NCBI GenBank assembly: GCA_043767845.1
Contig: JAYUFZ010000006.1
Span: 6,726 to 70,725 of the forward strand
Source: a bacterium
Lineage (GTDB): Bacteria; Patescibacteriota; Saccharimonadia; UBA4664; JBBRNT01
DNA: 64,000 nt
Reading direction: 5' to 3'
Shown here: positions 16,068-64,000 of the stretch, piece by piece
How the letters are laid out: each line of letters opens with the position of its first letter
Numbering within the stretch: the first letter of the stretch is position 1
Notes under the pieces: model-generated
Told to the model about the DNA's origin: nothing
Databases searched by the model: none
Seen by the model: only the letters and a program-made list of their open reading frames with translations
Translations under genes and position numbers: made by a program

Positions 16068-16609
16068 AAACGCGCTACGTAGCCTTTCTTCGTGGCATCA
16101 ATGTCGGCGGCCACAATGTTTCGATGGAGCATCTGAGGGGGTTGATCTCCGACCTCGGTTTGAGCGAAGTGCGCAGCTACATCCAGACCGGCAATATTTT
16201 CTTTGATGCTGAGTCCAGTGACCAGCACGGCTTAAGCCAAAAGGTTTACAGCCTTCTGGAAGCTAAGCTTGGCTACCGTGTGCCGACTTTTGTGCTCACC
16301 ATTGACGAGCTGGAGCACATTATTAACGCAGCACCATTTGGATCAATCGAGCTTACCGATGACACTCGCCATATGATTGTCTTTATCAATAAACCGCTCC
16401 CCCAAGGCACAAGCTATCCCTTGCTTTCCCCAAAAGGCGACTTTGAGGTGGTGGGCGCGACTGATGACGCCGCTTACGTAGTTGTCCATTTAACCAACGG
16501 CAAATTCCCCAGCTCCAATTTTCTAGAGAAAAACTTTGGGCTAGAAACCACTGGCCGCTTTTACCACACGGCTATCAAGATACTGGCGGCTGCCCAGACT
16601 GCTAGTTAA
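16064..16609 (+). CDS. DUF1697 family protein
   Basis: N-terminal YVAFLRGINVGGHN motif characteristic of DUF1697. 181 aa. Confidence 0.75.
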   Translation: MKTRYVAFLRGINVGGHNVSMEHLRGLISDLGLSEVRSYIQTGNIFFDAESSDQHGLSQKVYSLLEAKLGYRVPTFVLTIDELEHIINAAPFGSIELTDDTRHMIVFINKPLPQGTSYPLLSPKGDFEVVGATDDAAYVVVHLTNGKFPSSNFLEKNFGLETTGRFYHTAIKILAAAQTAS

Positions 16610-24449: not shown

Positions 24450-26669
24450 ATGCTTTTAAAGTTTATTGTGCTTGCCGTCGTTTGTCTGCTAAGCAGCGTT
24501 CTTGGCATATTTGTATTTATTAAAAACCCCAAAGATAAGACTTTTCGTGCTTTTGGTGGGTTTGTGCTTGCGACGAATCTCTGGCTGCTCTCTGACTTCT
24601 TAAGTAATAGCTTGTCGCTCCCAAAATCGACGGTTCTGCTCATGAACTATTTAACTCTGGCATTCCCGGTATTAGCCTTATATGTTTTGATCCTTTTCTG
24701 CCTCTACTTAACTAAAAGATTAGCGGGCATCCCACACCTCGGATTGCAGGTCATTGCCTTGGCAGCAGCAGTAGTTACAGCCCTCTGTTTTACTCCATAT
24801 TTTGTTCAAGATGTAGTCGCCAGTCAGGGCATCTATAAGATTACTTTTGGCCCCCTGATCAATATTTATTTCGGATACATTGTAGTAGGTATTATTATTG
24901 TAGGCATTGTCCTGGGGCGCAGTTATTTCTTGGCCAGAGCGGCTGAGCGAACGCGGCTGGGCTATGTCATTGCCAGTATTATTTTGGCCTTGGGCAGCGC
25001 ATTTATTACCAACTTGGCCGTTCCATTGATAGCCCACAATTTTAGTCTAGTAATCTATGCTCCCATTTCCGCACTTATCCTGACGATTGGATTCTCATAC
25101 GCTATTGTCAACCAGCGTCTGTTTGATATACGAGCAATTATTGCCCGCTCGGTGACCTATTTATTCCTCCTGGCAACACTGGCGACTATCTATGGCTTCA
25201 CTCTTTTTGGAATCTCTCAGCTGTTCTTCACGGACCGCAGCTCTTCACCGGTTGAGATCGCAACCTATATTGTCTTGGCGCTCATTCTATCATTTACGTT
25301 TCCGACCCTTCGGCAATTTTTTGAGCGTACGACTGACCGCATTTTCTTCAAAAATCGCTACGATACACAGGACGTTCTGGACAATGTGGGCAAGGTGCTA
25401 GTCCAGGAAATGGATATCGATGCTATGTTGCGAGATGTTCTTGAAGTAATTTGCAAACAAGTACATATTTCTCATGGCCAGTTCTTCATTTTTAACAGCG
25501 ATCGGATTTATAAGGTGGCTCACTTTGGCCCACTGCCTCAGCGACTCATTGTTGTACCAGAACTAGAGCATTTGCATAAACAGTTAATCCTTGCTGATGA
25601 AGTGGCCCCCGGAAAGCTCAAAGATATAATGAGTAGCCACAGCATTCGTTTGAGCAAAAGACTCCACACTAAGGACGATTTTGTCGGATTCTTACTTCTA
25701 GGCGACAAACTAAGTGGCGATATCTACTCAGATCAGGATGTGAAACTCATCGAAATCATGTCCTCGAGTCTAGCCATCGCTATCCAGAACGCCAAATCCT
25801 ATGAACAAATCCGCCAGTTCAACATCACTCTCCAAGAAAAAATCGAGCAGGCTACTAAGCGTTTGCGGGTGGCAAATGCCAACCTCAAGAGCCTCGATAA
25901 GGCCAAGGATGAGTTTATTTCGATGGCTTCACATCAGTTGCGCACGCCGCTGACGACCATTAAGGGCTATGTGTCGATGATTCTTGAGGGCGATACGGGG
26001 CCTATTACCGATGAGCAGAAGGAATTCCTGAACTACGCTTTTGCTGGTTCGGAGCGGATGGTTAGCTTGATCTCAGACTTGCTCAATGTCTCGAGGCTAG
26101 CTGCCGGCCGATTTATAATTGAGCGAACGCCGACCGATATCGTGGCGGTGGTGGCCGATGAGGTTCGTCAGCTGCAGTCGCACGCCGCAGCCAAAAACCT
26201 GCAACTGGTCTTTACGCCGCCTGCCACGCCGCTGGCTACTATCTCGATCGATGAGAACAAGACCAGGCAAGTCATGATGAACTTCATCGACAACGCCATT
26301 TACTACACTAAGGAAGGCAAGGTTAGCGTGGCAGTCGGCGAGAGCAAGGATATGGTTCGCTTTACCGTTACCGATACGGGCATCGGCGTGCCGAAGGACT
26401 CGCAGAACAAACTCTTTACCAAATTCTACCGTGCCGGCAATGCCCAAACTGTCCGACCGGACGGCACCGGGCTGGGCCTCTACTTGGCCAAGCGGGTTAT
26501 CGAGGACCAAGGTGGTACAATAGTCTTTGAAAGCCATGAGGGCAAGGGCAGCACGTTCGGGTTTGAAATACCGCTCCATGTGCCAGCCAGCACCGCGCCC
26601 AAGGCCACTGTCATTATTAGTAAGAAACATAGCCAGCCTGTCGCACTCAAGACAGAGAAGAAAGAATGA
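24450..26669 (+). CDS. sensor histidine kinase with N-terminal polytopic (7TM-type) sensor and GAF domain
   Basis: 739 aa. About 300-aa hydrophobic N-terminus, GAF-like middle, HisKA SHQLRTPLTTIKGYVSMIL, HATPase GTGLGLYLAKRVIEDQGG. Confidence 0.85.
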   Translation: MLLKFIVLAVVCLLSSVLGIFVFIKNPKDKTFRAFGGFVLATNLWLLSDFLSNSLSLPKSTVLLMNYLTLAFPVLALYVLILFCLYLTKRLAGIPHLGLQVIALAAAVVTALCFTPYFVQDVVASQGIYKITFGPLINIYFGYIVVGIIIVGIVLGRSYFLARAAERTRLGYVIASIILALGSAFITNLAVPLIAHNFSLVIYAPISALILTIGFSYAIVNQRLFDIRAIIARSVTYLFLLATLATIYGFTLFGISQLFFTDRSSSPVEIATYIVLALILSFTFPTLRQFFERTTDRIFFKNRYDTQDVLDNVGKVLVQEMDIDAMLRDVLEVICKQVHISHGQFFIFNSDRIYKVAHFGPLPQRLIVVPELEHLHKQLILADEVAPGKLKDIMSSHSIRLSKRLHTKDDFVGFLLLGDKLSGDIYSDQDVKLIEIMSSSLAIAIQNAKSYEQIRQFNITLQEKIEQATKRLRVANANLKSLDKAKDEFISMASHQLRTPLTTIKGYVSMILEGDTGPITDEQKEFLNYAFAGSERMVSLISDLLNVSRLAAGRFIIERTPTDIVAVVADEVRQLQSHAAAKNLQLVFTPPATPLATISIDENKTRQVMMNFIDNAIYYTKEGKVSVAVGESKDMVRFTVTDTGIGVPKDSQNKLFTKFYRAGNAQTVRPDGTGLGLYLAKRVIEDQGGTIVFESHEGKGSTFGFEIPLHVPASTAPKATVIISKKHSQPVALKTEKKE

Positions 26670-40627: not shown

Positions 40628-43054
40628 ATGTTATGGCTGTTATTGATAGTCGCTGGAATCATTTTGTTTGTAGCCCGCGCGAATCCGTCAAATAACAAGG
40701 GAGGCAGCAACTCTGGTGGTTTTGCAGACCCGGCCACCAAGAGCCGGGTCGCCCACGACCTGGAGCAGCTGGCAGCCAGGCCGGAGTTAATCGCCTACCA
40801 GCTAAGTCTTCGCTCAGCAGTGCAGTACCTACGACTGGGCATTATCACCAATCATTCGCTCGCGCCGACAGCCACACCCGAAGCTGGGCCGGTCATCCAG
40901 CAAGTGTCTGCCTCGGTAGCCGGGCAAGTAACTCCGCCCAGCGCGCAATCCGCTGCCGGTTCCATAATGAGCCAACCGCTGACCAGCGAAGCAGCCTTCA
41001 AGGCGTTAGAAAACATCAACACTTTACTTTATTTGGGAGCTTTCATTTTTGTGGTCTCGGCCAGTCTCTTTGTGGGCTTAGCCGGTACCTCAGGGGCATT
41101 CAAGACGGCCTTCGTTGTACTTCTGTCGCTTGCCTTTTATGGTCTTGGCTTGTGGCTCTTTACTTGTACGATCCGCCTGAAGCCGGCTGGCACAACCTTC
41201 GTAGCCATCGGCCAAGTGCTCGCGCCACTAGCTGGGCTGGCGGCCTACCAAGTAATGTTTGAGGCTACTCACGGCCCGGCTATCTGGCTGATCACCTCGG
41301 CCATCAGCCTAGCGATGTACGTGTTAGCGCTTCGGGTTGTTCGTCAAACCTACATCACCTACTTCATGGCCTTTACTGTCCTTTCGCTTTTCGAGTCGGG
41401 GGTGGCCGTGCTTGGCGCGCCTGTTGAATACTATGCCTGGGGTATGTCGCTGGTATCGATAGTTTTTCTTTTTGTTGCCCGAAAAGTGCTTGGAAGTAAA
41501 GAATTCAGTGAACCATTTGCGGTAAGTGCCCAGATATTCATGCCGGTTGCGCTCTTGATAGCCATCGGTCAGATACCGCAGAATGGCTTACTCGCGACCG
41601 GCGTAACCCTCTTGATTGCCGCTTGTTATTACTATTTGGCACAGATGTTGACCGAAGTCCCTAGCGAAAGTGAGCTCTATATAGCACTAGCGGCTATCTT
41701 GCTACCGCTCGGCGCTGGCTTTGTTCTTACTTCGCAACAATCAAGCTTGCTTGCCATAGCACTTGTGGCGGTTGTGATAGGGGCCTTTGAGACATTGGGT
41801 GCGGGTCTCATTGCTGGCCAGGGCCAACGTGGGAAAACAGACATTATCGCTACAATTGGCGGCCTTTGTGTATTGCTGGCAGCCGTAGTGGTTTTGCAGC
41901 AACCAACGGCGCTTTTAGCCCTGCTGGCCGTCGCGGCCATTACTAACTTTGCCAGCCATTACCTCTACCGGGCCTGGAGCAATCTACTCCTGACTATCCT
42001 GGCTGTTTTGAGCCTGCCGGCCGTTGGCGTGCTGCGGGTTTGGGAGCCAGCACAGAGTAGCCTTATTCTAGCGTTCGCCTATCTGGTGCTTGGTGTAATC
42101 CTGCTAGTCTATCGCTCGAGCTTGAAGAGCTGGTCGGCAGAACATAACACCGTCGCCATCTTTGGCTACTGCGTTGCACTGACTGCGAGTCTTGGTAGCG
42201 GGCTTATGCTGGGCCACGACTGGGCGGCTTTGATTGCCATTTTGGTAATGATGGCGACCGTGCTAGCCAGTGAGGTTGAGCGGCAAGCCCAAGTCATCAG
42301 CCTTAGTGTCGGCCTGCTCTACCTTTCGGTTTATCAGCTACTATTACTATTTGCTACTGAACCAAGCGCCTACGGCTGGGTATTTTTGGCGCTGGCCTTG
42401 GCCATGTACGGCGCAGGGCGAGCCTCTGGCCTGGCTACTGGGCGTTGGCAGATTATCCGCTATGGCGGGCTCGTGGCTGCCTATCTGGCGGCGCTGACCG
42501 GGTTGTCTCTTGACCTGGGCTTGCAACTATCGGCCATTTGCGGGCTCTTTGTAGCCGGTTTATTGAGCTGGTACGAGGCCAGGGCTACGGCCGCGGGTGA
42601 AGCCTATATCTATGGCTCCGGTGCCGTATTAATGCTGGCCGTCGATTGGCTACTGTACTATGCCGGCATCCATGAGACCCAAGTCTATACTCATCTGTGG
42701 GCGGCCTACTTTGCCTTCCTGGCCTATCGTTACCAGCAAAAGGGCAAACAAGCCGAGAGCGACCAGCTCATCATAATAGCCCTCGGTAGCGTCACCATAC
42801 CTCTGGCCCTTCAGGCATTGGGCGATGTCGGTAGCGCCTATGGGCTGCTACTCATTATCGAGGGCGTGCTGCTGGTACTAGCCGGCATTGCATCGCGCAA
42901 ACGCACTGTCCAATATTGGGGGATCGCCACGGCGGTTTTGTCGATTCTGTACCAACTGCGCGGCCTATGGTATGTGACGCTTGGCGCTATCGGGCTGGGG
43001 ATAATCGGCTTGGCCGTAGCGCTGCTGCTGCGCCGCGAGCAACCCAAGCTGTAG
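40628..43054 (+). CDS. large polytopic integral membrane protein, hypothetical
   Basis: 808 aa with well over 20 hydrophobic helices and little soluble sequence. No family recognised. Confidence 0.7.
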   Translation: MLWLLLIVAGIILFVARANPSNNKGGSNSGGFADPATKSRVAHDLEQLAARPELIAYQLSLRSAVQYLRLGIITNHSLAPTATPEAGPVIQQVSASVAGQVTPPSAQSAAGSIMSQPLTSEAAFKALENINTLLYLGAFIFVVSASLFVGLAGTSGAFKTAFVVLLSLAFYGLGLWLFTCTIRLKPAGTTFVAIGQVLAPLAGLAAYQVMFEATHGPAIWLITSAISLAMYVLALRVVRQTYITYFMAFTVLSLFESGVAVLGAPVEYYAWGMSLVSIVFLFVARKVLGSKEFSEPFAVSAQIFMPVALLIAIGQIPQNGLLATGVTLLIAACYYYLAQMLTEVPSESELYIALAAILLPLGAGFVLTSQQSSLLAIALVAVVIGAFETLGAGLIAGQGQRGKTDIIATIGGLCVLLAAVVVLQQPTALLALLAVAAITNFASHYLYRAWSNLLLTILAVLSLPAVGVLRVWEPAQSSLILAFAYLVLGVILLVYRSSLKSWSAEHNTVAIFGYCVALTASLGSGLMLGHDWAALIAILVMMATVLASEVERQAQVISLSVGLLYLSVYQLLLLFATEPSAYGWVFLALALAMYGAGRASGLATGRWQIIRYGGLVAAYLAALTGLSLDLGLQLSAICGLFVAGLLSWYEARATAAGEAYIYGSGAVLMLAVDWLLYYAGIHETQVYTHLWAAYFAFLAYRYQQKGKQAESDQLIIIALGSVTIPLALQALGDVGSAYGLLLIIEGVLLVLAGIASRKRTVQYWGIATAVLSILYQLRGLWYVTLGAIGLGIIGLAVALLLRREQPKL

Positions 43055-53572: not shown

Positions 53573-54709
53573 CTACTCGGCGATGAAGTAGTCGAAGCCG
53601 ATTTGCGGATTGGGGACAGAGACTGAGGCGCCAACGATTTTATTAGCAGTATACAGCTTGAAGCCAGCACTAGTCCTGGTGATGTAATACTGCATTTGTC
53701 CCGCTTCACGGCCGACGGGTGTCAGGTTAATGCGCGGGATTTTGCTGTAGCCAGCGCCAAAGGTAACAGTTGCAAGCAGCCCGCAAGTATTAGGGTCCAC
53801 CCCAACCACGGGAGTACAGGTAGCTCCAACTCCACTATCGTTGCCGGGGGTGATAACTATGGTACCGGTCGTATCATTGCCACTGACCGACGACGTACCT
53901 GAAGTCCCAAGCGTGTTTGTATTGTAGCTCAGGCTAGGGCCTGGGCCGCCTGAAATGTAGTGGCCGTTGATGGCCAGCGGTCCATTCAGCGTGGCATTCT
54001 TGAAGTTGATAGTATTGACGGTGAGGCTCCCAGCAATCGAAGCGTTGTTTAAGACATTGAGGCTACCGCCAACAGTCAAGGCGCTCGACATAGTGACCGC
54101 GCCTTGAATACTTACGGCGCCAGCGACAGCCAGCGTACTCTTGACGCTCGTGGCATTGAGCGTGGAATTGCCTGCCACATTCAGCTCCGAAAGGCTGGTA
54201 CTGCCAGCCGTCAGTCCAGCGAGGGTTGTGGCGCTCACGACATTCAGCTTGCCGCCAATACTGGCGTCTTTATCTACCTGAATTTTATTTTTAAATTGGG
54301 TGAACGGGGCAATGATTAGCGTCCCAAAACTCTCACCTATAGTAGCCGTCTTACTGTTGAGCTTATTAATTTCTTCGACACTCAGACTTTCAGGGTTATA
54401 GCCAGTTGGCGTGACGGCTTTCTGATTCCTGGACTTCAGGATGAAATAAATTGCCGCCACATTGGCCGCTATGATAAACAGCACAATAATAACGCCGAAT
54501 ATCGTCGCCCGAGCGCTCAAGTGGATTGTGCGTTTGGGCGTCAGCGGCTTGTTGGGCGTTAAATCATGAATATTATTTGGATCAGCCTTGCCAGAATCAG
54601 CTTCGGCGAGCTTGTCACTGGCACCAGAAAGCTCAACAGCGGCTGGAGTAGCAGTAGTTTGGGGAGCGCCGTTAGGCGATTGATTCTTTTCGGGCTTGTC
54701 GTCGGCCAT
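53573..54709 (-). CDS. membrane-anchored beta-helix-repeat protein (bactofilin/adhesin-head-like repeats)
   Basis: 378 aa with a charged N-terminus, one TM, then about 200 aa of roughly 17-residue repeats with the G-x-L-x-V / A-G-x-x-S-L pattern (...ASIGGKLNVVSATTLAGLTAGSTSLSELNVAGNSTLNATSV...). Confidence 0.6.
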   Translation of the reverse strand: MADDKPEKNQSPNGAPQTTATPAAVELSGASDKLAEADSGKADPNNIHDLTPNKPLTPKRTIHLSARATIFGVIIVLFIIAANVAAIYFILKSRNQKAVTPTGYNPESLSVEEINKLNSKTATIGESFGTLIIAPFTQFKNKIQVDKDASIGGKLNVVSATTLAGLTAGSTSLSELNVAGNSTLNATSVKSTLAVAGAVSIQGAVTMSSALTVGGSLNVLNNASIAGSLTVNTINFKNATLNGPLAINGHYISGGPGPSLSYNTNTLGTSGTSSVSGNDTTGTIVITPGNDSGVGATCTPVVGVDPNTCGLLATVTFGAGYSKIPRINLTPVGREAGQMQYYITRTSAGFKLYTANKIVGASVSVPNPQIGFDYFIAE

Positions 54710-54828: not shown

Positions 54829-55554
54829 ATGCATGTTTACAGGCGTTTTTTTGTGTGGGTGCTAGTAGGTTGGCTCGCGGTGCCAGGCCTAGTTTGGGCT
54901 GACGATTTGAAAAGTACGAATTACCAAATCCAGGAGAGTTTTGTGGGCGGTGGTGGCCGTATCGATGAAAGTTCGACAAACTTTCACGCCGCCGAATCGA
55001 TCGGCGACGCAGCTGTAGGCGATTCTGCTTCCACAAACCTACAGACGAAGTCTAGCTATACGACCACAAGTGATCCAGCGCTGACCTTCATTGTAGACAA
55101 CGGCGGGACAGTAAATTTCGGAGCGCTATCACCAACAGTCATGACCTACGCCACTTCAACCTTTCGGGTCATCAACTACACCAGCTACGGGTATCAAATA
55201 ATTATTACTGGCACCACGCCAAGCAATGGGCCCCACAGTATACCAGCACTTTCCACGCTGACGTCGCCGTCGATTGGTACCGAGCAATACGGCATAAACC
55301 TGGTGGCCAACAGCGGTTTTGGCGCCAACCCGCTCCAGGTACCATCAAGTAGCTTTAGCTATGGTGTAGCCCAGGGCCCCGACTACAACGTCGCTGACCA
55401 GTATAAGTTTGTTAGCGGCGATACTATTGCCAGCGCCCCGAAAAGCTCAGGTGAGACCGACTACACCATTTCGCATATTATTAATGTCTCGGCCCTCACC
55501 CTCGGCGGCCTGTATAGCTCCGGCCACGAACTTATCTGCATCGGCACTTATTAG
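54829..55554 (+). CDS. secreted SCPU/Csu-pilin-like protein, short paralog (P0)
   Basis: Signal peptide FVWVLVGWLAVPGLVWA. LTFIVDNGGTVNFGALSPT strand/FG motif, QYGINLV motif, and a C-terminus ...GGLYSSGHELICIGTY homologous to the ICTATF ends of the four longer paralogs. Confidence 0.65.
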   Translation: MHVYRRFFVWVLVGWLAVPGLVWADDLKSTNYQIQESFVGGGGRIDESSTNFHAAESIGDAAVGDSASTNLQTKSSYTTTSDPALTFIVDNGGTVNFGALSPTVMTYATSTFRVINYTSYGYQIIITGTTPSNGPHSIPALSTLTSPSIGTEQYGINLVANSGFGANPLQVPSSSFSYGVAQGPDYNVADQYKFVSGDTIASAPKSSGETDYTISHIINVSALTLGGLYSSGHELICIGTY

Positions 55555-55733
55555 GGATAGGGCGCAAGAGCGATAAGCCCATGGTAAGTAGTTTGACAAT
55601 GTTGTATCAACTACCACGCATATTTGTATTAATTACAACGAATCGCTATCTGATTTTTACGAAATAGCTGTTGACTGCTTTATTCCGCTAATGCTAAGCT
55701 AGTAACAGTCTATATTTGTGAATTAAGGATTTT

Positions 55734-56795
55734 ATGGCGGGTCGTCTCTCAATTCAGGGAAACCGAATTATAACCTGGACCAGTGTTTGGATTATGGCAA
55801 TTTACCTCTTTGCCCCGCTCACTGCATCCGCTGCTCAATTTACTTCGCGTAAGATTACGCTTGGCAGCTCGGCATTCTCGGCGGTAACTACCCATAAGTT
55901 TGATTTTGTCGTGCCAGTGGGCGGCGGTGGGAGCGTTGGGTCGATCCAGTTTTTGTATTGCCTCGCGGCTTCTGGTTCCTGTGTCACTCCTACAGGGTTG
56001 TCGACAACAAGTGCCACAATTTCAGCCCAGAGCGGTGCGACTGGTTTTACTATGGTTAACACCACAAATGGCGCACCCTACCTTACGCGCGCTGCCAGTG
56101 CCATTTCAGCGTCTACAGTGCTCAGCTATACGCTCGGAGTTGTTACTAACCCGAATATAGCAAATGAAACTTTTTATATTCGCATAAGTTACTTTACTGC
56201 CACGAATGCCACTGGCTCAGCACTGGATACTGGTATCGTTGCAGCCAGTACCGCTGCGCAGATTGTCGTAACAGCCCATGTCGATGAAATACTCATCTTT
56301 TGCGTTTATACTGGCGCGAATTGCGCGGCCGGCGGCACCACGGTCACGCTGGGTACTGTGACGCCTACAGTCACGGGTGTAGGTATATCCTATATGGATG
56401 CTGGTACCAATGCCGGTAGTGGCTACAGTATCCAGTACACAGCTCCAACACTGACTTCCGGTGCTAATACCATTACGGCCATCGGCACAACAGCCACTAC
56501 TTCGGTGGTTGGGACCGCCCAATTCGGTATCAATGCCACAGGGCCGAATGCCACCCCTACCGTCACTGGTTCACAAACACCAAGCGGCATCGCCCCTATC
56601 GGTAGCGCGGCAACGAATTACAATACTGCCGACAATTATGCTTTTGTTGCCAGCACGCTGACTACCGTCGCGACCTCCTCGGGTGCAGCTAACACCACCA
56701 AATTCTCTGTGTCATATCTGGCCAATGTTAACTCGTCACAAGCTGCTGGGGATTACACCTCAACCTTCACTTATATTTGTACGGCTACATTCTAA
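55734..56795 (+). CDS. secreted SCPU/Csu-pilin-like two-domain protein, paralog P1 (type A)
   Basis: AAGGA RBS 4 nt upstream. Signal peptide, conserved mature N-terminus AAQFTSRKITLGSS, Cys pairs (C-x6-C and C-x6-C), the QFGINA motif, and C-terminus AAGDYTSTFTYICTATF. About 75% identical to P4. Confidence 0.7.
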   Translation: MAGRLSIQGNRIITWTSVWIMAIYLFAPLTASAAQFTSRKITLGSSAFSAVTTHKFDFVVPVGGGGSVGSIQFLYCLAASGSCVTPTGLSTTSATISAQSGATGFTMVNTTNGAPYLTRAASAISASTVLSYTLGVVTNPNIANETFYIRISYFTATNATGSALDTGIVAASTAAQIVVTAHVDEILIFCVYTGANCAAGGTTVTLGTVTPTVTGVGISYMDAGTNAGSGYSIQYTAPTLTSGANTITAIGTTATTSVVGTAQFGINATGPNATPTVTGSQTPSGIAPIGSAATNYNTADNYAFVASTLTTVATSSGAANTTKFSVSYLANVNSSQAAGDYTSTFTYICTATF

Positions 56796-57904
56796 TGGGA
56801 AAAATCATGAACAAACAGATAGAACTCAAAAGAAAAATCTCCCAAATCGTTCTTGTCGCGATGACGCTCGCTATGCTGCCGGTCACCAATGCTTCTGCCG
56901 CCCAGATTACTGCCCGTAAACTGACGCTTGGTTCCTCGGCCTCGGCGACAGCTACTACCTATAATTTCGTGTTCACACTGCCAACAGCTACAGCCGTCAA
57001 GTCAGCGCGCTTCCAGGTTTGCTCCACGGCATCTGGCTCTTGTACTGTGCCTAATCTCTGGGCCAATACAGGCGCAACGCTTGGTAGTTTTACCAATATT
57101 GGTACCGGCTTTACTGTCGACCTGGCATCGAATGCTGACAGCTTAGGTATGACAAGCGCGGCTAACTCAACGGCACCGACGTCGCCCGTAACCGTGCAAT
57201 TCAATAATGTGACCAACCCTACTCTAACCACGCAGCCATTTAGCTTCTATGTACGGATTGCTACGTATTCATCTAATACCTATACCGGAGCGCTCGATAC
57301 TGGTGTAGTTGCGGCAGCTATCGTAAATCAGATCACGCTTACTGGTACCATGCCTGAGTCGCTCATCTTCTGTACGGGCGGCACAGTGACAGGCACTGAT
57401 TGCTCGACGGCTACGAGCGGTGCCGTGTCGTTCAACCAGTTCTTTTCACCCACAACTACCGCGACCGCGACATCGCAAATGGTTGCTTCGACTAATGCTG
57501 GTACGGGATATGTCATTACCGTGAGCGGTGCGACGATGACCTCCGGTGGTAGCACGATTACCGCCATGAGCTCATCGACAACATCTGTCATTGGTACGAG
57601 ACAATTCGGTCTCAATCTAGTCAGCAATGCTACGCCAGCAATTGGAGCCGCAGTAACCCCTGCCTCAAGCGCATCCGGCGGATCAACGCTACAAGCTAAT
57701 CCCGCTACCGGTTACGGGGCTGCCGACAACTTTAAGTTCCTAACTGGAGATACAGTAGCCAACTCGGACTTCCAAACTGGTGGCACAAATCGCGCCAGCG
57801 ACGCGCAGAATTATACTGTTTCCTACATAGTAAATGTAAATGGTAGTTTAGCCGCAGGCGTATACACGACGACGCTGTCTTACATCTGTACTGCCACATT
57901 CTAG
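56795..57904 (+). CDS. secreted SCPU/Csu-pilin-like two-domain protein, paralog P2 (type B)
   Basis: ATG 56795 overlaps the P1 stop (TAATG); alternatives are TTG 56777 and ATG 56807. Mature N-terminus AAQITARKLTLGSS, C-x6-C and C-x9-C pairs, QFGLNLV, C-terminus AAGVYTTTLSYICTATF. About 80% identical to P3. Confidence 0.7.
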   Translation: MGKIMNKQIELKRKISQIVLVAMTLAMLPVTNASAAQITARKLTLGSSASATATTYNFVFTLPTATAVKSARFQVCSTASGSCTVPNLWANTGATLGSFTNIGTGFTVDLASNADSLGMTSAANSTAPTSPVTVQFNNVTNPTLTTQPFSFYVRIATYSSNTYTGALDTGVVAAAIVNQITLTGTMPESLIFCTGGTVTGTDCSTATSGAVSFNQFFSPTTTATATSQMVASTNAGTGYVITVSGATMTSGGSTITAMSSSTTSVIGTRQFGLNLVSNATPAIGAAVTPASSASGGSTLQANPATGYGAADNFKFLTGDTVANSDFQTGGTNRASDAQNYTVSYIVNVNGSLAAGVYTTTLSYICTATF

Positions 57905-57996
57905 TCGAGCCTGATAGCGCCCTTTCAACAAAAAAGTAAATAAGTGTAAAAATCAGCTTGAAAAAGTTGTTGACATGATAATGCTAATGCTGCACA

Positions 57997-59151
57997 ATGG
58001 CATCAAGTACACAAAAAACAAAAGAACGAGCAAAACAAATGTACAAACAGAAGTCCACTAAAATACAACAGCTACAAGTTCGAATAGCCCAGATAGTTGT
58101 TATTGTCTTGGGCTTTAGTCTGTTGCCGTTATCCACGGCTCAAGCTGCGCAAATTACTGCTCGTAAACTAACGCTCGGTTCGTCCGCATCTGCCGCAGCA
58201 ACAACCTATAGTTTCCAATATACCCTGCCGACAGGCACGGCGGTTAAATCGGTGCGCTACCAGTTTTGTACACTTGCATCTGGTGCCTGCACAGTTCCTG
58301 GATCGTGGGTAAATACTGGCGCTACCCTCACAAGCTTTACCAATATCGGGACTGGCTTCGCTGTGGACTTAGCAACCAACGCCGATAGTCTCGGCATGAC
58401 CAGCGCGGCAAATTCTACAGCTCCGTCGTCCCCAGTGTCCGTACAGTTTAGCAATGTGACAAACCCTACCTCTGTCACTCAACCATTTAGCTTCTATGTA
58501 CGCATCTTCACCTACTCAACAAACACATACACCGGCGCACTTGACAGCGGCGTTGTCGCAGCGGCAATCAATCAACAAATAACTTTGACCGGCACCATGC
58601 CCGAATCACTCGTCTTTTGTACCGGTGCTACCGTCACAGGTACGGACTGTACAACTGCAACCTCTGGAGCAATAAGTTTCGGGACACTCTTCTCTCCAAC
58701 ATCAACATCCGTCACAACGTCGCAAATGGTAGCCTCAACAAATGCCGGGACAGGATATGTTATCACGGTCAACGGCGCGACAATGACATCTGGTGGTAAT
58801 ACCATAGCTGCTATGGGCTCGACTACTACTTCTCAACTCGGCGTCAGCCAGTTCGGTCTCAACCTAGTAGTCAATACTGTACCGTCGGTCGGGACAGCTA
58901 TTGCGCCAACGTCTAGTGCCCTAGGTGGTTCTACGCTTCAAGCTAATCCTTCAAGTAACTACGGCACAGCCGACAACTTCAAATTCACCAGCGGTGACAC
59001 TATAGCCAACTCAGACTTCCAAACTGGTGGTACAAACCGAGCAACAGATGCCCAAAACTATACCATTTCCTACATCGTGAATGTCCCAGGTAGCCAGGGA
59101 GCAGGTACCTATACGACAACCCTGACCTACATTTGTACAGCCACTTTCTAA
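57997..59151 (+). CDS. secreted SCPU/Csu-pilin-like two-domain protein, paralog P3 (type B)
   Basis: Same architecture as P2. A possible promoter (TTGACA -17- CACAAT, 57970-57998) would favour the internal ATG 58039 (MYKQKST...) as the real start. Confidence 0.7.
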   Translation: MASSTQKTKERAKQMYKQKSTKIQQLQVRIAQIVVIVLGFSLLPLSTAQAAQITARKLTLGSSASAAATTYSFQYTLPTGTAVKSVRYQFCTLASGACTVPGSWVNTGATLTSFTNIGTGFAVDLATNADSLGMTSAANSTAPSSPVSVQFSNVTNPTSVTQPFSFYVRIFTYSTNTYTGALDSGVVAAAINQQITLTGTMPESLVFCTGATVTGTDCTTATSGAISFGTLFSPTSTSVTTSQMVASTNAGTGYVITVNGATMTSGGNTIAAMGSTTTSQLGVSQFGLNLVVNTVPSVGTAIAPTSSALGGSTLQANPSSNYGTADNFKFTSGDTIANSDFQTGGTNRATDAQNYTISYIVNVPGSQGAGTYTTTLTYICTATF

Positions 59152-59204
59152 AAGCCAAAACTGTCCACTAAAAGTCCGAAAAACCCCAAAACAAAACGAA
59201 AACA

Positions 59205-60269
59205 ATGAAAACTACAAAATCAAAAATCAATCGAATAGACCGCATCAGGCACATCCTCGCCAAAATATTGATAGCGGCTACTATCATCGGGCTCACCCCC
59301 TTAACTGCCCAAGCTGGTTTCCAACCCAGGTCAGTATTACTCGGTAGTTCAGCTATATCAGTAGTAACGACTCATAGGTTTTCACTCACAGCCATTAATG
59401 GTGGTAGTGTTGGTTCAATCCAGTTTCTGTACTGCACCAGTGCTTCGGGGACTTGCACGACGCCTACTGGACTTTCGACTACCAGCGCGACCTTATCAGC
59501 GCAGTCCGGTGCTACCGGCTTCACCATGACGAATACCACCAATGGCGCACCATATATCACGCGAGCAGCATCAAGTATCACGGCGTCAACACCAATCAGC
59601 TATACGCTGGGTGTCATTACCAACCCATCAACCACCAATACCAGCTTCTTCATCCGCATTTCAACCTTTACTGCTACCAACGCCACGGGTTCGGCACTCG
59701 ATGCCGGTGTCGTGGCGGCCAGCACTGCAGCTCAGGTAGTGGTCAACGCCCATGTCGATGAGATTATCACCTTCTGTGTATACACTGGCGCCAACTGTGC
59801 TGCCGCTGGAGCAACTGTCGACCTAGGTACACTCACACCAACGACGACCGGCGTCGGCGTATCGTACATGGACGCTGGTACCAATGCTGGCAGCGGCTTC
59901 GCAGTCCAATACAACGGTCCGACGCTGACCTCCGGTGGTAACACGATCAGCTCGATCGGAGGCACTGCCACCACCTCGACAGTTGGGCTCGCCCAGTTTG
60001 GTATCAATGCCACTGGTACAAACGCCACTCCAGCCGTGACCGGCTCACAGACTCCGAGTGGTGTTGCGCCAATCGGCAGCGCCGCAACGAACTACGACGT
60101 CGCCGATACCTATGCTTTCGTGGCTAGTACGCCCACAACGCTGGCTACATCAAGCGGGGCCGCTAATACTACGAAGTATTCAGTCTCTTACGTATCAAAC
60201 ATCAACTCCTCCCAGGCCGCCGGTGATTACACGACAACAATTACTTACATCTGCACTGCTACTTTCTAG
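59205..60269 (+). CDS. secreted SCPU/Csu-pilin-like two-domain protein, paralog P4 (type A)
   Basis: Same architecture as P1. C-terminus AAGDYTTTITYICTATF. Confidence 0.7.
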   Translation: MKTTKSKINRIDRIRHILAKILIAATIIGLTPLTAQAGFQPRSVLLGSSAISVVTTHRFSLTAINGGSVGSIQFLYCTSASGTCTTPTGLSTTSATLSAQSGATGFTMTNTTNGAPYITRAASSITASTPISYTLGVITNPSTTNTSFFIRISTFTATNATGSALDAGVVAASTAAQVVVNAHVDEIITFCVYTGANCAAAGATVDLGTLTPTTTGVGVSYMDAGTNAGSGFAVQYNGPTLTSGGNTISSIGGTATTSTVGLAQFGINATGTNATPAVTGSQTPSGVAPIGSAATNYDVADTYAFVASTPTTLATSSGAANTTKYSVSYVSNINSSQAAGDYTTTITYICTATF

Positions 60270-60286
60270 CCCGCAACAAAAACTAG

Positions 60287-60316
60287 TTTACAGGACTAGC
60301 TCTCCACGGCTATAAT
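60287..60316 (+). promoter_or_regulatory. strong sigma70-like promoter (TTTACA -18- TATAAT) giving a near-leaderless transcript
   Basis: -10 TATAAT ends at 60316 and the ATG of the next gene is at 60324. No room for a Shine-Dalgarno sequence. Confidence 0.45.
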
Positions 60317-60323
60317 AGCCTTA

Positions 60324-61349
60324 ATGCTTAAACGTTTTTCCGCACTTACTTTGGTGCTTTGCCAAACAATGCTTTTCGTTATTGCGCCGATAGCCAATGC
60401 CGCAAGTGCTGCTACCAATAGTGGGCAGGGGATAGAGCTTTCTCCGCCAGTTATCGAGATTAAGGCCGATCCTGGCCAGATCGTTACTGGCGAAATTAAG
60501 CTGCGCAATATTACCAAGAACGACCTAATAGCCAAAAGTAAAGTTGACGATTTCGCGGCCAAAGGTGAAGACGGCCAGCCCCAAATCCTGCTTGACGAAA
60601 CGACAACAACTCGCTTTTCACTCAAGACCTGGATCCAGCCAATAGCTAATCTGCGATTAGCTCCCCAGAAGATAGAAACCATCAAGTTCAGTATTAATGT
60701 GCCTCGTAATGCTGAGCCCGGCGGGCATTTTGGCGTCATCCGCTTTACCGCGCAGCCTCCAGAGCTGGAGGGGACCGGGGTGGCACTATCCGCTAGTATA
60801 GGCTCTTTAATTCTGCTCAATGTATCCGGTGACGCCAAGGAGGGGGCTAGTATCGCAAGCTTTAAGGTCGCCCAAATTACGACAGGTTGGGAAAAAGTTA
60901 TCAGGGGTGACGGCGGTCTGGATGTCGGCCTGCAAGACGGTAGCTTTTTCGAGTATGGCCCGGTCCGCTTCACTACGCGTGTCAAAAACGAGGGGAATGT
61001 GCAGGTCAAGCCAGTCGGCACGATAGATGTGTTCAATATTTTCGGTATGAAAGTCGCTAGTCTCAAGATGAACGATCCTGCCCGCAACGTTTTGCCGGAG
61101 AGTATTCGTAAGTTTGACACCGATTGGAAGCAACACTGGCTCATCGGCTACTTCAAGGCCAGGGCCAACCTAACCTATGGTGCCTCAAACAAAGCCCTTA
61201 TTAGCTCGACAGTTGGCTTCTGGGTAGTTCCTTACAAGCTCATTGCATTAATAGTACTCGGCCTCATTCTGCTGCTCATCGTCATGCGTAGCGCCCTACG
61301 TCGTTACAACCGCTACATCATCGCCCAAGCCCGCAAACATCGTCGCTAG
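60324..61349 (+). CDS. signal-peptide protein with Ig/PapD-chaperone-like N-domain and C-terminal TM + Arg-rich tail (DUF916/CscA-like architecture)
   Basis: Signal peptide LVLCQTMLFVIAPIANAASA. The N-terminal pattern GIELSPPVIEIKADPGQIVTGEIKLRN ... WIQPIANLRLAPQKIETIKFSI resembles pilus-chaperone strands. C-terminus LIALIVLGLILLLIVMRSALRRYNRYIIAQARKHRR. Confidence 0.6.
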   Translation: MLKRFSALTLVLCQTMLFVIAPIANAASAATNSGQGIELSPPVIEIKADPGQIVTGEIKLRNITKNDLIAKSKVDDFAAKGEDGQPQILLDETTTTRFSLKTWIQPIANLRLAPQKIETIKFSINVPRNAEPGGHFGVIRFTAQPPELEGTGVALSASIGSLILLNVSGDAKEGASIASFKVAQITTGWEKVIRGDGGLDVGLQDGSFFEYGPVRFTTRVKNEGNVQVKPVGTIDVFNIFGMKVASLKMNDPARNVLPESIRKFDTDWKQHWLIGYFKARANLTYGASNKALISSTVGFWVVPYKLIALIVLGLILLLIVMRSALRRYNRYIIAQARKHRR

Positions 61350-61494
61350 TATAGCCCTGTTTCTGATCTTAATTATTTATGAGTCCTGACTACTCAAGTT
61401 ATTTATAGAAGGGCAAAAGTAGAAATACCAACAATAGGTGATAAGAAAGGTGGTGTGATAGGGCGATATGGGCCAGCCTTTCCAGGTGTACATC

Positions 61495-61527
61495 GATGGG
61501 GCGGTGTGTATCTGATGCCCCATTTCC
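61495..61527 (+). terminator. weak hairpin, possible terminator
   Basis: GATGGGGC-(14-nt loop)-GCCCCATT, followed by only a short T run. Confidence 0.3.
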
Positions 61528-61595
61528 GTCTGCCGTTACCCATTCAAGATTGTTAAGCTTAGTGCTATAATAATTCTAACCAAAAGTAAACAAAA

Positions 61596-62603
61596 ATGGT
61601 TATCCAAACAAAGATCCTACATCACCAGCACAGTGGCAAGCTTAAGCCCCACCGCCACACCTCATACGCGGGGTTATTTTTCATGCTCATGCTCTGCGGT
61701 CTTGCCTTGCTCACAATTACCCAGGCCACTTATGGCGCCCATCCCGACCCTGGCATCGGCACTATCGGTCTTAAGGGTGTTGTCCCCGGCAAAGCACCGA
61801 CTGTGGCGGCCGTTATCAACAGCCCACGCAATGGGACGCGCTTTACTACGATTCCCGTACCGGTGACTGGGACATGCCCACAAAATACCATAGTTGAGAT
61901 ATTCAAAAACGGTATTTTTGCCGGCTCAGATTATTGTAAGGATGATCAAACTTTTTCGATCCAAGTTGACTTGTTGATAGGGGCCAACGACGTTGTGGCT
62001 AAGGTCTTCGATGCCCTCGACCAGGCTGGTCCAGATTCAAACACCATTACTCTGTACTACGATGTGCAGCCGGCGGCGCCATTATTTGTGCTATCAGCGC
62101 CAAATGCTCTACCCGACGATTATCAGCAATTCGTTTTACGTACCAACGCGGTGTACCGTGGCTCATTTGCCGGCGACCCGGTGAAAGTGGTTATTGACGT
62201 TATAGGCGGTATAGCACCATACGCATTAATTATCGACTGGGGTGATGGTAAGACTGACCTCGTAAGCCGCGAAAATAAAGAGAGCTTTACAACTGAGCAT
62301 ATCTTCGGCAAACCGGGTGTCTACCAGGCCATCATCAAGGGAACTGATTCCAAAAATAAAACTGCCTATCTGCAAACCACAATCCTGGTCAATGGCCAAT
62401 CCGACTTGGCCGCCGGCACCACTGTCACTACGACGGCAACGGCAACCAAGAGCTTGCTACTAGCCTGGCCAATGTGGATCCTACTTTTCCTAGTCTTTAT
62501 TAGCTTCTGGCTTGGAGAACGGCACGAAAAAACAGTGCTACGTCGCCGCGGCCAATTGGTGACGGCCAACAGTGGCATGAAAGCTGGTCCCACGAAAGCC
62601 TAA
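61596..62603 (+). CDS. double-anchored extracytoplasmic protein with PKD-like domain
   Basis: Promoter TTCAAG -17- TATAAT at 61543-61571. N-terminal TM, IIDWGDGKTD (PKD WxxGDG-like) segment, Thr-rich stalk, and a C-terminal TM (LLLAWPMWILLFLVFISFWL). Confidence 0.6.
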   Translation: MVIQTKILHHQHSGKLKPHRHTSYAGLFFMLMLCGLALLTITQATYGAHPDPGIGTIGLKGVVPGKAPTVAAVINSPRNGTRFTTIPVPVTGTCPQNTIVEIFKNGIFAGSDYCKDDQTFSIQVDLLIGANDVVAKVFDALDQAGPDSNTITLYYDVQPAAPLFVLSAPNALPDDYQQFVLRTNAVYRGSFAGDPVKVVIDVIGGIAPYALIIDWGDGKTDLVSRENKESFTTEHIFGKPGVYQAIIKGTDSKNKTAYLQTTILVNGQSDLAAGTTVTTTATATKSLLLAWPMWILLFLVFISFWLGERHEKTVLRRRGQLVTANSGMKAGPTKA

Positions 62604-62766
62604 AAAAGAGCCATTTTTCAGATACAAAATGCTTGTGGTCTAGGCACGAAATTGTTATGCTATATGGGTAACAAAGTTAGCGTGGCAAGTGTCTTTTAGC
62701 AAGAGCTTACAAGGTGGTAATACGCAAACTAGTGGAAATGGCCGGTCCCTACGGGTAGGGACACGT

Positions 62767-64000
62767 GTGCTGCTACTAGTGCTTTTTGCTGTAAATTCTT
62801 TTCTCCCATTCGACGCTGTGACAGGCAAGTTCTTCGGCTTTAGCGACGCGCCCACTGCTCAAGCAGCAGCTGGCGTGAACAGCTCGATCAACTTCCAAGC
62901 ACGCTTGCTCAATAGCGCCGGCGCCACCGTCCCAGATGGCCTTTACAACATGCAGTTCAAGATTTACCACGACGGGACAGGCTGTGTGTCGAGCGGCTCG
63001 TCGCCCTGTGGTGGCACCTTGGACTGGACCGAATCATGGCTCAACAACGCCACCAACGGCGTGACTGTACGCAATGGTTATTTCTCGGTCTACCTCGGCT
63101 CGATTACGAGCTTTGGCGGCGCCGTGGACTTCAACCAAGATACCCTCTGGCTATCGATCAATGTTGGTAGCACTAACGGCAGCTGTACGCCATTCACTGG
63201 CTGTTCCGGCGATGGTGAAATGCTCCCCTTCAAGCGTCTAGCAGCCAACGCCTACTCGAATAATTCGGCCCAGCTTGGAGGTCTCGACAAAACCCAATTT
63301 GTGCAGCTCGGCCAGGGTCTGCAGGCCGACACCTCGAACAGCAATGCCTCGATCGCTATCAATAAAACTGGGTCGGCCAACATTCTTGACCTCCAAAAGG
63401 CCGGCTCAACTGTCGCCCTACTCAGTAATACCGGCGCCTTAACGCTCACCAATACGGCTAATTCATCAGCGGCTTTCCAGGTTCAGAATTCAAGCGGACA
63501 AGCAATTTTCAATGTTGATACTACCAACGCCAAGATTGGCACGCCAAACTCCACCGTAGCAACTACCCGTGACCTCAAGATTGCCACTGGTGACGCCTCG
63601 AGCGGCACAAACTTGAGTTCCGGCAACCTTACCATCGATACCGGTACAAAGACGGGTAGTGGAACTGCTGGCTCAATCAGCATTGGCGGCGTAAATGCGC
63701 CACAAATTACTTTCAAGGTGGTCAGTGGCGCCAATTCGACGACAGTCAACTTCACTACGCCGACAGCCACGAACTCGATCAATTTCCCTGACGCTGGTGG
63801 CACGGTTTGTACGACTATTTCAACCACTTGCGGCAGCGTCTATGGCTCGGCTGGGAGTTTCGTGACGCTTCAGGCCAGCACACCGGGAACCGCCCAAACT
63901 GGTAGCTCAAACATAACCGGCACAGCCATTGTCGGCACTAATCTCATAACCCCACTGGCCCAGACTACCGACCAAACCGCCGCCTCCACCAACTCTGCTA
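62767..64000 (+). CDS. giant Thr/Ser/Asn/Gly-rich cell-surface protein, 5' part (runs off the window end)
   Basis: The reading frame stays open from 62644 to the window end (more than 410 codons). Candidate starts are GTG 62689 (MASVFSKSLQ...RVGTR + hydrophobic stretch) or GTG 62767. The sequence has beta-rich repeats typical of large adhesin-like surface proteins. It is absent from the ORF track because it has no stop. Confidence 0.55.
   Translation, partial: MLLLVLFAVNSFLPFDAVTGKFFGFSDAPTAQAAAGVNSSINFQARLLNSAGATVPDGLYNMQFKIYHDGTGCVSSGSSPCGGTLDWTESWLNNATNGVTVRNGYFSVYLGSITSFGGAVDFNQDTLWLSINVGSTNGSCTPFTGCSGDGEMLPFKRLAANAYSNNSAQLGGLDKTQFVQLGQGLQADTSNSNASIAINKTGSANILDLQKAGSTVALLSNTGALTLTNTANSSAAFQVQNSSGQAIFNVDTTNAKIGTPNSTVATTRDLKIATGDASSGTNLSSGNLTIDTGTKTGSGTAGSISIGGVNAPQITFKVVSGANSTTVNFTTPTATNSINFPDAGGTVCTTISTTCGSVYGSAGSFVTLQASTPGTAQTGSSNITGTAIVGTNLITPLAQTTDQTAASTNSA

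Follow-up and report, generated by a model that had tools for sequence, protein, structure and literature searches.

An usher-less Pam-type pilus operon, as judged from its genes, in an uncultured Saccharimonadia bacterium, and the WxLIP kinship of its membrane-anchored chaperone

Introduction

What is assembled from a row of secreted paralogs whose genes lie beside that of a membrane-tethered chaperone-like protein, with no gene for an usher? This question is raised by a stretch of 64,000 nucleotides from an uncultured bacterium of the class Saccharimonadia, within the Patescibacteria of the candidate phyla radiation (CPR). The stretch (GenBank assembly GCA_043767845.1, contig JAYUFZ010000006.1, positions 6,726 to 70,725 of the forward strand) is called the window below and is numbered from its first nucleotide. 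A sequence-only reading had placed a run of same-strand genes at positions 54829-62603, and seven consecutive plus-strand open reading frames (ORFs) are present with those boundaries. The same reading had interpreted them as donor-strand pilins with a membrane-tethered, DUF916-like chaperone and no usher in a monoderm cell. This core interpretation agrees with the structures and models of homologous Pam pili, to which the window is linked by curated hidden Markov models (HMMs). We consider the region to be a Pam-type usher-less pilus operon, with a probability of roughly 0.85. The belief that such an arrangement was undescribed has to be given up, and the finding of the operon is in itself not new, because the Pam system was published in a 2026 bioRxiv preprint and is covered by models of NCBIfam release 20.

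According to Troman et al., the filaments of Candidatus Mycosynbacter amalyticus, resolved by cryo-electron microscopy (cryo-EM) at 2.8 and 3.6 Å, consist of the two-domain pilins PamA and PamB, in which the strand missing from a truncated immunoglobulin (Ig)-like C-terminal domain is supplied by the interdomain linker of the adjacent subunit (bioRxiv 10.64898/2026.03.03.709456). The operon of this organism further encodes PamE, the single-domain tip protein PamT and the RbmA-like protein PamR. PamC and PamD are chaperones that resemble PapD and FimC and, unlike the chaperones of chaperone-usher systems, have a C-terminal transmembrane helix. The authors state that Pam assembly requires no transenvelope machine (bioRxiv 10.64898/2026.03.03.709456).

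Identification of the operon

The seven genes, with product lengths in amino acids (aa), are as follows.

54829..55554, plus strand: P0, PamT, single-domain tip pilin; 241 aa; NF058579
55734..56795, plus strand: P1, class A two-domain Pam pilin; 353 aa; NF058581, 116.4 bits
56807..57904 (ORF opens at 56777), plus strand: P2, class B two-domain Pam pilin; 365 aa; NF058581, 143.5 bits
58039..59151 (ORF opens at 57997), plus strand: P3, class B two-domain Pam pilin; 370 aa; NF058581, 148 bits
59205..60269, plus strand: P4, class A two-domain Pam pilin with degenerate N-terminal motif; 354 aa; NF058581, 117.1 bits
60324..61349, plus strand: PamD-like membrane-anchored chaperone, WxLIP homologue by AlphaFold2 (AF2), Foldseek, hhalign and position; 341 aa
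61596..62603, plus strand: PamR, RbmA-like terminator/anchor with a C-terminal transmembrane helix; 335 aa; NF058578

The identification is carried by three NCBIfam models with curated cut-offs. P0 matches NF058579 (CPR-type pilus protein PamT, an equivalog model; cut-off 240 bits) with 273.7 bits over residues 6-241 of 241. The C-terminal halves of P1-P4 match NF058581 (Pam pilus system pilin subunit; cut-off 55 bits) with 116-148 bits, and the product of 61596-62603 matches NF058578 (pilus system RbmA-like protein PamR; cut-off 300 bits) with 309.9 bits. The E-values of the window proteins against these models, 1e-34 to 1e-92, are far beyond chance. In Pfam, P0-P4 match no family.

The gene order agrees as well. 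To judge by accession numbers, the genes of M. amalyticus run PamT, PamA, PamE, PamD, PamR, which is the order in the window, and the chaperone gene of the window occupies the PamD position. Both loci come from Saccharimonadia, and both contain PamT, two-domain pilins, a transmembrane-anchored chaperone with two Ig domains and PamR, and no usher. They differ in their pilins, of which the window has four, 353-370 aa long and in two duplicated classes, with none of the size of PamA (55 kDa), and in their chaperones, with one in the 64 kb of the window as opposed to PamC and PamD in M. amalyticus. Furthermore, a giant ORF lies 3′ of PamR in the window, whereas the accession numbers of M. amalyticus place PamB and PamC on that side, each set apart by an unnamed gene. 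The window is another instance of the Pam system, and what our analysis demonstrates is the homology of its parts, its architecture and its gene order.

Some gene starts require comment. P2 and P3 probably start at 56807 and 58039, neither of which is the first TTG or ATG of its ORF, and a 365-aa database protein matches the P2 start at 56807. The automatic gene call on a Logan contig starts P0 at Val39 (54943), which yields a protein of 203 aa that has lost its signal peptide; the ATG at 54829 is to be preferred, as the alignment with the PamT model begins at residue 6 of the 241-aa ORF.

Identical copies of the window proteins are carried by an 80,158-nt NCBI contig and by short Logan and ENA contigs. 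A scan of the GTDB species representatives, which do not include the genome of the window itself, with a chaperone profile gave 187 confirmed loci, of which the best 80 were analysed with their genes labelled by local HMMs. Nearly all of these 80 loci are titled as Saccharimonadia or other Patescibacteria, and none bears a title from outside the CPR; where homologues of window proteins have a named source, it is given as Saccharimonadia or Saccharibacteria. The chaperones of the best related loci are 47-52% identical to that of the window, and the identity is at most about 52%. Most complete loci read, in order, an ORF of about 350 aa on the other strand, PamT, one to four pilins, the chaperone, PamR and a giant ORF of 800-2900 aa, so that the four pilins of the window stand at the upper end of the range. 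In a minority variant, seen in about 12 of the best 80 loci, a second, shorter chaperone replaces PamT. Class B pilins (as P2 and P3) predominate in the 80 loci and class A pilins (as P1 and P4) are rare. A positional orthology of the pilin classes between loci was considered and rejected, as no consistent pattern emerged.

Pilins, tip protein and PamR

The four long paralogs are arranged A-B-B′-A′, as the sequence-only reading had proposed: P1 and P4 share 73% of their amino acids and 63% of their nucleotides, P2 and P3 share 74% and 66%, and the amino acid identity between the classes is 39-44%. The synonymous sites are saturated (proportion of synonymous differences, pS, about 0.8) while the nonsynonymous proportion is low (pN, 0.17-0.20); therefore, the duplications are old and purifying selection acts on the copies, much as had been suggested for them. 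The motifs that had been ascribed to every one of the five paralogs are found in P1-P4, namely a signal peptide, the N-terminal motif (degenerate in P4), C-x6-C, C-x6/9-C, QFG[IL]N and the end G-x-Y-T-x-T-x-x-Y-I-C-T-A-T-F. The description fails for P0, which has neither the Q-I-T-A-R-K motif nor the Cys pairs but a single Cys, QYGIN in place of QFGIN and the end ELICIGTY. Even in P1-P4, where both Cys pairs are present, the conserved Cys residues number five and not four, and exactly five are found in 59 of 64 pilin homologues. The fifth Cys, C366 in P3, sits in the last strand (YIC-TATF) and is the same residue as the only Cys of PamT (P0 residue 237); it may be a free thiol or take part in an intermolecular disulfide.

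P1-P4 had also been described as tandem double-domain proteins. They do contain two beta-sandwiches, but the two domains have no detectable sequence kinship (hhalign, 3.8%), and an origin of one domain by duplication of the other was rejected on this ground. In the AF2 model of P3 (predicted local distance difference test, pLDDT, 88), the strands of the N-terminal sandwich span residues 42-177, a coil occupies residues 178-190 and the C-terminal domain comprises residues 191-370. This coil, NQQITLTGTMPES, is the interdomain linker and has the lowest pLDDT of the mature protein in the AF2 monomer; the corresponding linker of P1 is QIVVTAHVDEIL. Unstructured as it is in the monomer model, the linker is highly conserved across the family and adjoins the most conserved segment: conservation is highest (0.93-0.94) in MPESLVFCT and in the C-terminal strand, and reaches 0.83 in the N-terminal motif. 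The conserved N-terminal strand had been put forward as the donor strand. This role would rather fall to the linker, since the solved PamA and PamB donate their interdomain linker, and the N-terminal strand of P3 is modelled as an integral part of the N-terminal domain. The linkers also differ by class, with QIVVTAHVDE in class A versus QITLTGTMPE in class B, a sequence difference that suggests groove specificity and an ordered assembly.

P0 aligns only with the C-terminal half of the pilins. It has no N-terminal domain and no donor linker and consists of the acceptor C-terminal domain only; the comparison of the PamT family with the pilin C-terminal domain gives an hhalign value of 99.9%. In front of the acceptor domain, three S-T-N-Y-Q repeats are conserved in the PamT family within the N-terminal 65 residues (P0 residues 25-90; window 54901-55100), and a Gly-rich stretch comes after each of them. 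Where the pilins have their donor linker, PamT has the third of these hydrophilic repeats, as would suit a subunit that accepts a strand but donates none.

The product of 61596-62603 had been read as a PKD-like, double-anchored protein, and it does have hydrophobic segments at both ends and faint PKD matches. The mature N-terminal strand of this PamR, TIGLKGVVPG, resembles the class B pilin linker; the consensus of the 74-member PamR family is SIGLSGTVPG, against QIxLTGTMPE for the pilin linker. Such a linker-like strand would fit a PamR that caps the last groove of the fibre. Before the first hydrophobic stretch, the PamR N-terminus (61596-61700) has the motif L-x-HH-x-H-[ST]-G-x-L-x-PH-x-HTSYAGL, strongly conserved in 74 homologues. 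The motif is too conserved for the plain n-region of a signal peptide and may therefore be a cytoplasmic signal or a metal-binding motif, either of which would imply that the N-terminal anchor is retained.

The chaperone and its relatives

The product of 60324-61349 had been described as an Ig/PapD-like chaperone with a C-terminal transmembrane segment and an Arg-rich tail. The AF2 model (pLDDT 89) bears this out with two beta-sandwich domains, arranged in the two-Ig-domain boomerang fold of PapD-like chaperones, and a transmembrane helix at residues 304-340. The best Foldseek matches in the PDB are the Enterococcus faecium WxLIP crystal structures 9i1y and 9i25 (E 2.5e-9). They are followed by the chaperones CfaA, CsuC, YadV, Caf1M, DraB and FaeE (E 8e-9 to 4e-7 over about 270 columns), and the target-normalised TM scores of the chaperones from chaperone-usher systems are 0.44-0.59. 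A check against the PapD-like families found PF00345 and PF02753 neither in the window chaperone nor in 63 homologues, which leaves a similarity of fold only. PF06030 (DUF916/WxLIP_PGBD), in contrast, is found in 17 of the 63 homologues, and three of these exceed its gathering score of 27.3 bits.

For comparison, ten WxLIP reference proteins were used, together with WxL clusters from plasmids of Enterococcus, Lactococcus, Bacillus, Lactiplantibacillus and Listeria. These clusters were recovered by tblastn against plasmids with a WxLIP sequence stitched from a frameshifted contig as the query; a query of EfmWxLIP3 tryptic peptides gave gene fragments only. Aligned with the ten WxLIP proteins by hhalign, the chaperone family reaches 93.2% (E 3e-7) over 229 columns that cover both domains, compared with 1.6% for the reversed control. 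A direct match of the chaperone to PF11797 was not found. In a tblastn search of 72,556 plasmids, the window chaperone gave five weak matches, all on genes annotated as DUF916. The DUF916 proteins of Clavibacter and Paenibacillus are intermediates, with hhalign values of 97.6% against the profile of the Pam chaperone and of 95-96% against WxLIP; those encoded on the Clavibacter phaseoli plasmid pCCh (6101-7915) and on a Paenibacillus urinalis plasmid (6806-8477) are nearer the CPR Pam chaperone than Lactobacillales WxLIP.

The earlier DUF916/CscA call is borne out by the top folds, the PF06030 matches and the profile alignment, and these comparisons indicate that the Pam chaperone is a true homologue of the Firmicute WxLIP (DUF916/DUF3324) over its full length. 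For the chaperone, kinship with DUF916 is more strongly supported than the Pap/Fim comparison made in the preprint. The preprint does not mention DUF916 or WxL (bioRxiv 10.64898/2026.03.03.709456), and none of the papers searched ties WxL domains to strand complementation or DUF916 to Saccharibacteria. The WxLIP link of the chaperone goes beyond the published account of the Pam system.

WxLIP has been predicted by AF2 to insert a strand into a gap of the WxL domain (PMC10599100). The hairpin predicted to enter WxL aligns with loop 88-110 of the window chaperone (...TRFSLKTWI...), which is conserved and mostly irregular, shows an alternating pattern and contains the near-invariant residues L89, L90, S99, K101 and W103. 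From this alignment, we infer that loop 88-110 may be the donor element of the chaperone.

This kinship brings up a second explanation of the locus, in which the region is a WxL/Csc-type surface complex and P0-P4 are wall adhesins held singly by the strand of a WxLIP-like protein, with no polymerisation. The parallels to Firmicute WxL/Csc clusters are considerable. There, a DUF916-DUF3324 protein homologous over both domains shares the transmembrane helix, a chaperone-like gene stands directly 3′ of a group of small secreted paralogs and near a gene for a large adhesin, and WxLIP is predicted, as is proposed for the Pam chaperone, to complete the beta-sandwich of its client by a donated strand (PMC10599100). 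The end of the pilin C-terminal strand also resembles the second WxL motif, IAGTYKSVFTYTATSGI in Paenibacillus. However, the clients in the window are Pam pilins by their matches to NF058581, and both Pam pilins solved by cryo-EM form filaments. No WxL domain is detectable in them: PF13731 matches none of 69 proteins (P0-P4 and 64 homologues), and WxL is absent from the top fold matches of the pilin. The comparison of the pilin C-terminal domain or PamT with WxL, made with three profile sets, a relaxed alignment, a global mode and reversed controls, gave hhalign values of 1-15% (1.5-15% for the C-terminal domain) that fall within the control range and involve the last strand only, where the motif VPG..A..Y.T.LT[WY].[LC] is aligned. 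Moreover, the genuine ORFs of the window include no sortase and no LPXTG motif, and the window has neither the Pro-rich spacer nor the small LPXTG protein of WxL clusters. The conserved donor-like linker and the PamR strand would imply chains of subunits; Pam clients carry a donor linker and, in the homologues, polymerise, whereas WxL proteins are regarded as bound to peptidoglycan and not as fibres. We therefore regard a WxL/Csc-type complex as an unlikely explanation, and an operon for a Pam pilus remains our preferred one.

A WxL neighbour of the Paenibacillus gene ends in IAGTYKSVFTYTATSGI, which resembles the pilin end AGTYTTTLTYICTATF as well as the second WxL motif. The small neighbour of the Clavibacter gene gives an hhalign value of 0.4% against the Pam C-terminal domain, and a tblastn search of plasmids with a pilin produced no match. 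A homology of pilin and WxL clients is unproven and not demonstrable by profile comparison.

A broader idea would connect these systems. Pam pili, the Firmicute WxL/Csc clusters and the DUF916 loci of Actinobacteria could be branches of one ancient usher-less system of monoderms, built around a membrane-anchored, strand-donating WxLIP/PamCD chaperone, with WxL as the counterpart of the Pam C-terminal domain. We offer this only tentatively and think it rather less probable than its denial; the half that concerns the chaperone is well supported, and the half that concerns the clients is not demonstrated.

Relation to chaperone-usher pili

The sequence-only reading had assigned the paralogs to the spore-coat-protein-U (SCPU) domain of Csu pilins. 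In this explanation, P0-P4 are archaic pilins of the SCPU/Csu type, partly with tandem SCPU domains, that polymerise through their N-terminal strands and derive from a Csu system that has lost its usher. The chaperone fold provides an argument for it, because the chaperones of chaperone-usher systems, including CsuC, are significant matches. A further argument comes from the pilin, whose top 50 Foldseek matches include the class 5 proteins CfaE and CfaB as well as PapG, and the G-x-Y-x-x-T end motif is similar in sequence to SCPU ends, which may point the same way. The list is otherwise one of generic tandem-Ig proteins, most of its members being generic Ig-like domains (BslA/YweA among them); no Csu pilin is among these 50, and the pilin shows no privileged similarity to CsuA/B. 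The assignment to SCPU fails at the level of families: PF05229 is absent from P0-P4 (E<=1) and from 64 homologues (E<=0.1), and PF05229, PF00345 and PF02753 match no window protein and none of 127 homologues. Tandem SCPU domains are difficult to reconcile with the lack of kinship between the two pilin domains, and polymerisation through the N-terminus with the linker donation of the solved homologues and with the place of the N-terminal strand in the P3 model. The nearest relatives of the chaperone are the WxLIP proteins of monoderms and not CsuC. The likeness of the pilins to SCPU is at the level of the generic Ig-like fold, and we consider a descent from Csu pili improbable.

Nevertheless, Pam pili and chaperone-usher pili (Pap/Fim, CFA/I class 5 and Csu) have much in common, including an incomplete Ig-like subunit, donor-strand exchange, a chaperone with two Ig domains, a tip without a donor strand, the concept of a terminator and a disulfide where the pilin domain begins. 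Pam pili differ in that they have no outer-membrane usher, their chaperone is anchored in the membrane and not soluble, the organism is monoderm, the donor is the interdomain linker rather than an N-terminal extension and the subunits have an extra N-terminal domain. The window proteins, in addition, are not members of PF00419, PF05229, PF00345 or PF02753. No usher-like family was found among the window ORFs scanned against Pfam and NCBIfam (every ORF of 600 aa or more and most, but not all, of the smaller ones), and these scans likewise gave neither an outer-membrane usher nor a soluble periplasmic chaperone. The fibres of TasA/TapA in Bacillus, the archaeal threads and the cannulae, compared here by description, are closer to Pam in being donor-strand fibres without an outer-membrane machine, but they have no membrane-anchored two-Ig chaperone and no PamR-like anchor.

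The proposal that P0-P4 are unrelated secreted Thr/Ser-rich beta-sandwich proteins (S-layer proteins or generic adhesins) that happen to lie beside a membrane protein, with no strand exchange, would fit their low-complexity Thr/Ser/Gly/Ala composition and the mostly generic Ig-like fold matches, but it is very hard to maintain against equivalog-level matches to Pam models, a gene order strictly kept in about 80 genomes and a partner with a chaperone-type fold.

Several observations weigh against the assignment to the Pam system. The chaperone matched no NCBIfam Pam model, and its own match to PF06030 is below threshold (13.9 bits, E 0.057). Sequence searches of the PDB with P3, the chaperone and both family profiles returned nothing meaningful, in a copy of the PDB that apparently holds no Pam structures. 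The assembly of a Pam pilus by this organism is predicted here from its genes, and donation by the linker rather than the N-terminus would be carried over from homologues. The model gives no account of the conserved N-terminal pilin motif or of the odd fifth Cys. Finally, the window ends inside the gene 3′ of PamR, and a second chaperone or pilin (PamC- or PamB-like) may lie beyond it.

A model of assembly

If the locus works as its homologues do, all products of the operon would be exported via Sec. The C-terminal Ig-like domain of each of P1-P4 would be one strand short, and the membrane-anchored chaperone would hold a new subunit by inserting a strand, probably from loop 88-110, into its groove. 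The interdomain linker of the next subunit would then displace the chaperone strand in a donor-strand exchange. In consequence, the base of the fibre, at the cytoplasmic membrane, would be the site of growth. PamT, with a groove and no donor linker, could only be the distal tip, and PamR, with its linker-like N-terminal strand and C-terminal transmembrane helix, would cap the base and tether the fibre. An usher would not be needed because there is no outer membrane. The filament structure and the donation of the linker have been demonstrated for homologues rather than for this organism and would apply here by analogy. As with the donor loop of the chaperone, we infer the order of P1-P4 within the fibre and the roles of the two pilin classes.

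Neighbouring genes and other features of the window

Two further ORFs flank the operon.

53573..54709, minus strand: upstream neighbour; 378 aa; N-terminal transmembrane anchor and Thr/Ser/Gly/Asn-rich repeats
62689..64000, plus strand: 5′ part (at least 437 aa) of a giant secreted protein; frame open to the end of the window

The upstream neighbour belongs to no Pfam or NCBIfam family and has a faint bactofilin-like match (E 0.05). In many related loci, an ORF of about 300-390 aa lies directly 5′ of PamT on the other strand, and a conserved ′tail fibre-like′ neighbour has been mentioned for Pam loci (bioRxiv 10.64898/2026.03.03.709456). The downstream frame opens at or before 62689 and is still open where the window ends; in most related loci, the position 3′ of PamR is taken by ORFs of 800-2900 aa. 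The giant protein is Gly/Thr/Ser/Asn-rich and repetitive, and its orthologue in one related locus (L051) has the same N-terminal INFQGRLLNSAGATVPDG domain. The part encoded at 62689..64000 has no Pfam or NCBIfam match; the protein is possibly an adhesin. The other neighbours in the window are housekeeping genes (PcrA, an ABC exporter, DUF218, KsgA, a transglutaminase-domain protein, MetRS and TatD). A scan for promoters and terminators showed no enrichment over shuffled sequences.

Farther from the operon, a minus-strand ORF at 16602-18587 encodes a protein of 661 aa with a Pro-rich N-terminus, a transmembrane segment and, near the C-terminus, RARDAQRKSDLRAVKNALETYFNDENSYP, which is like the start of type IV pilin-like heads; it has no Pfam family. 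The guanine-cytosine (GC) content falls from 0.57-0.59 at 18-22 kb to 0.46-0.47 at 22-26 kb and is about 0.52 elsewhere in the window. The GC-rich part at 18-22 kb holds a lipoprotein-like ORF of 606 aa without a family. Three sensor histidine kinases of PAS/GAF and seven-transmembrane types are encoded at 2995-5556, 7967-9496 (minus strand) and 24450-26669, which seem many for a reduced CPR genome. A polytopic, Leu/Ala-rich membrane protein of 808 aa at 40628-43054 has no Pfam or NCBIfam family.

Conclusions

Pam pili form a class of bacterial fibre that was recognised only recently, and they are likely to serve episymbiotic CPR bacteria as a host-contact organelle. The link between their chaperone and WxLIP connects a CPR pilus with the widespread clusters of WxL surface proteins in enterococci, listeriae and lactobacilli, hints at the origin of the usher-less chaperone and offers testable ideas about the attachment of WxL proteins to the Gram-positive surface. 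If the shared ancient system outlined above is real, the WxL proteins of Enterococcus, Listeria and Lactobacillus might be held, and even polymerised, by donor-strand exchange.

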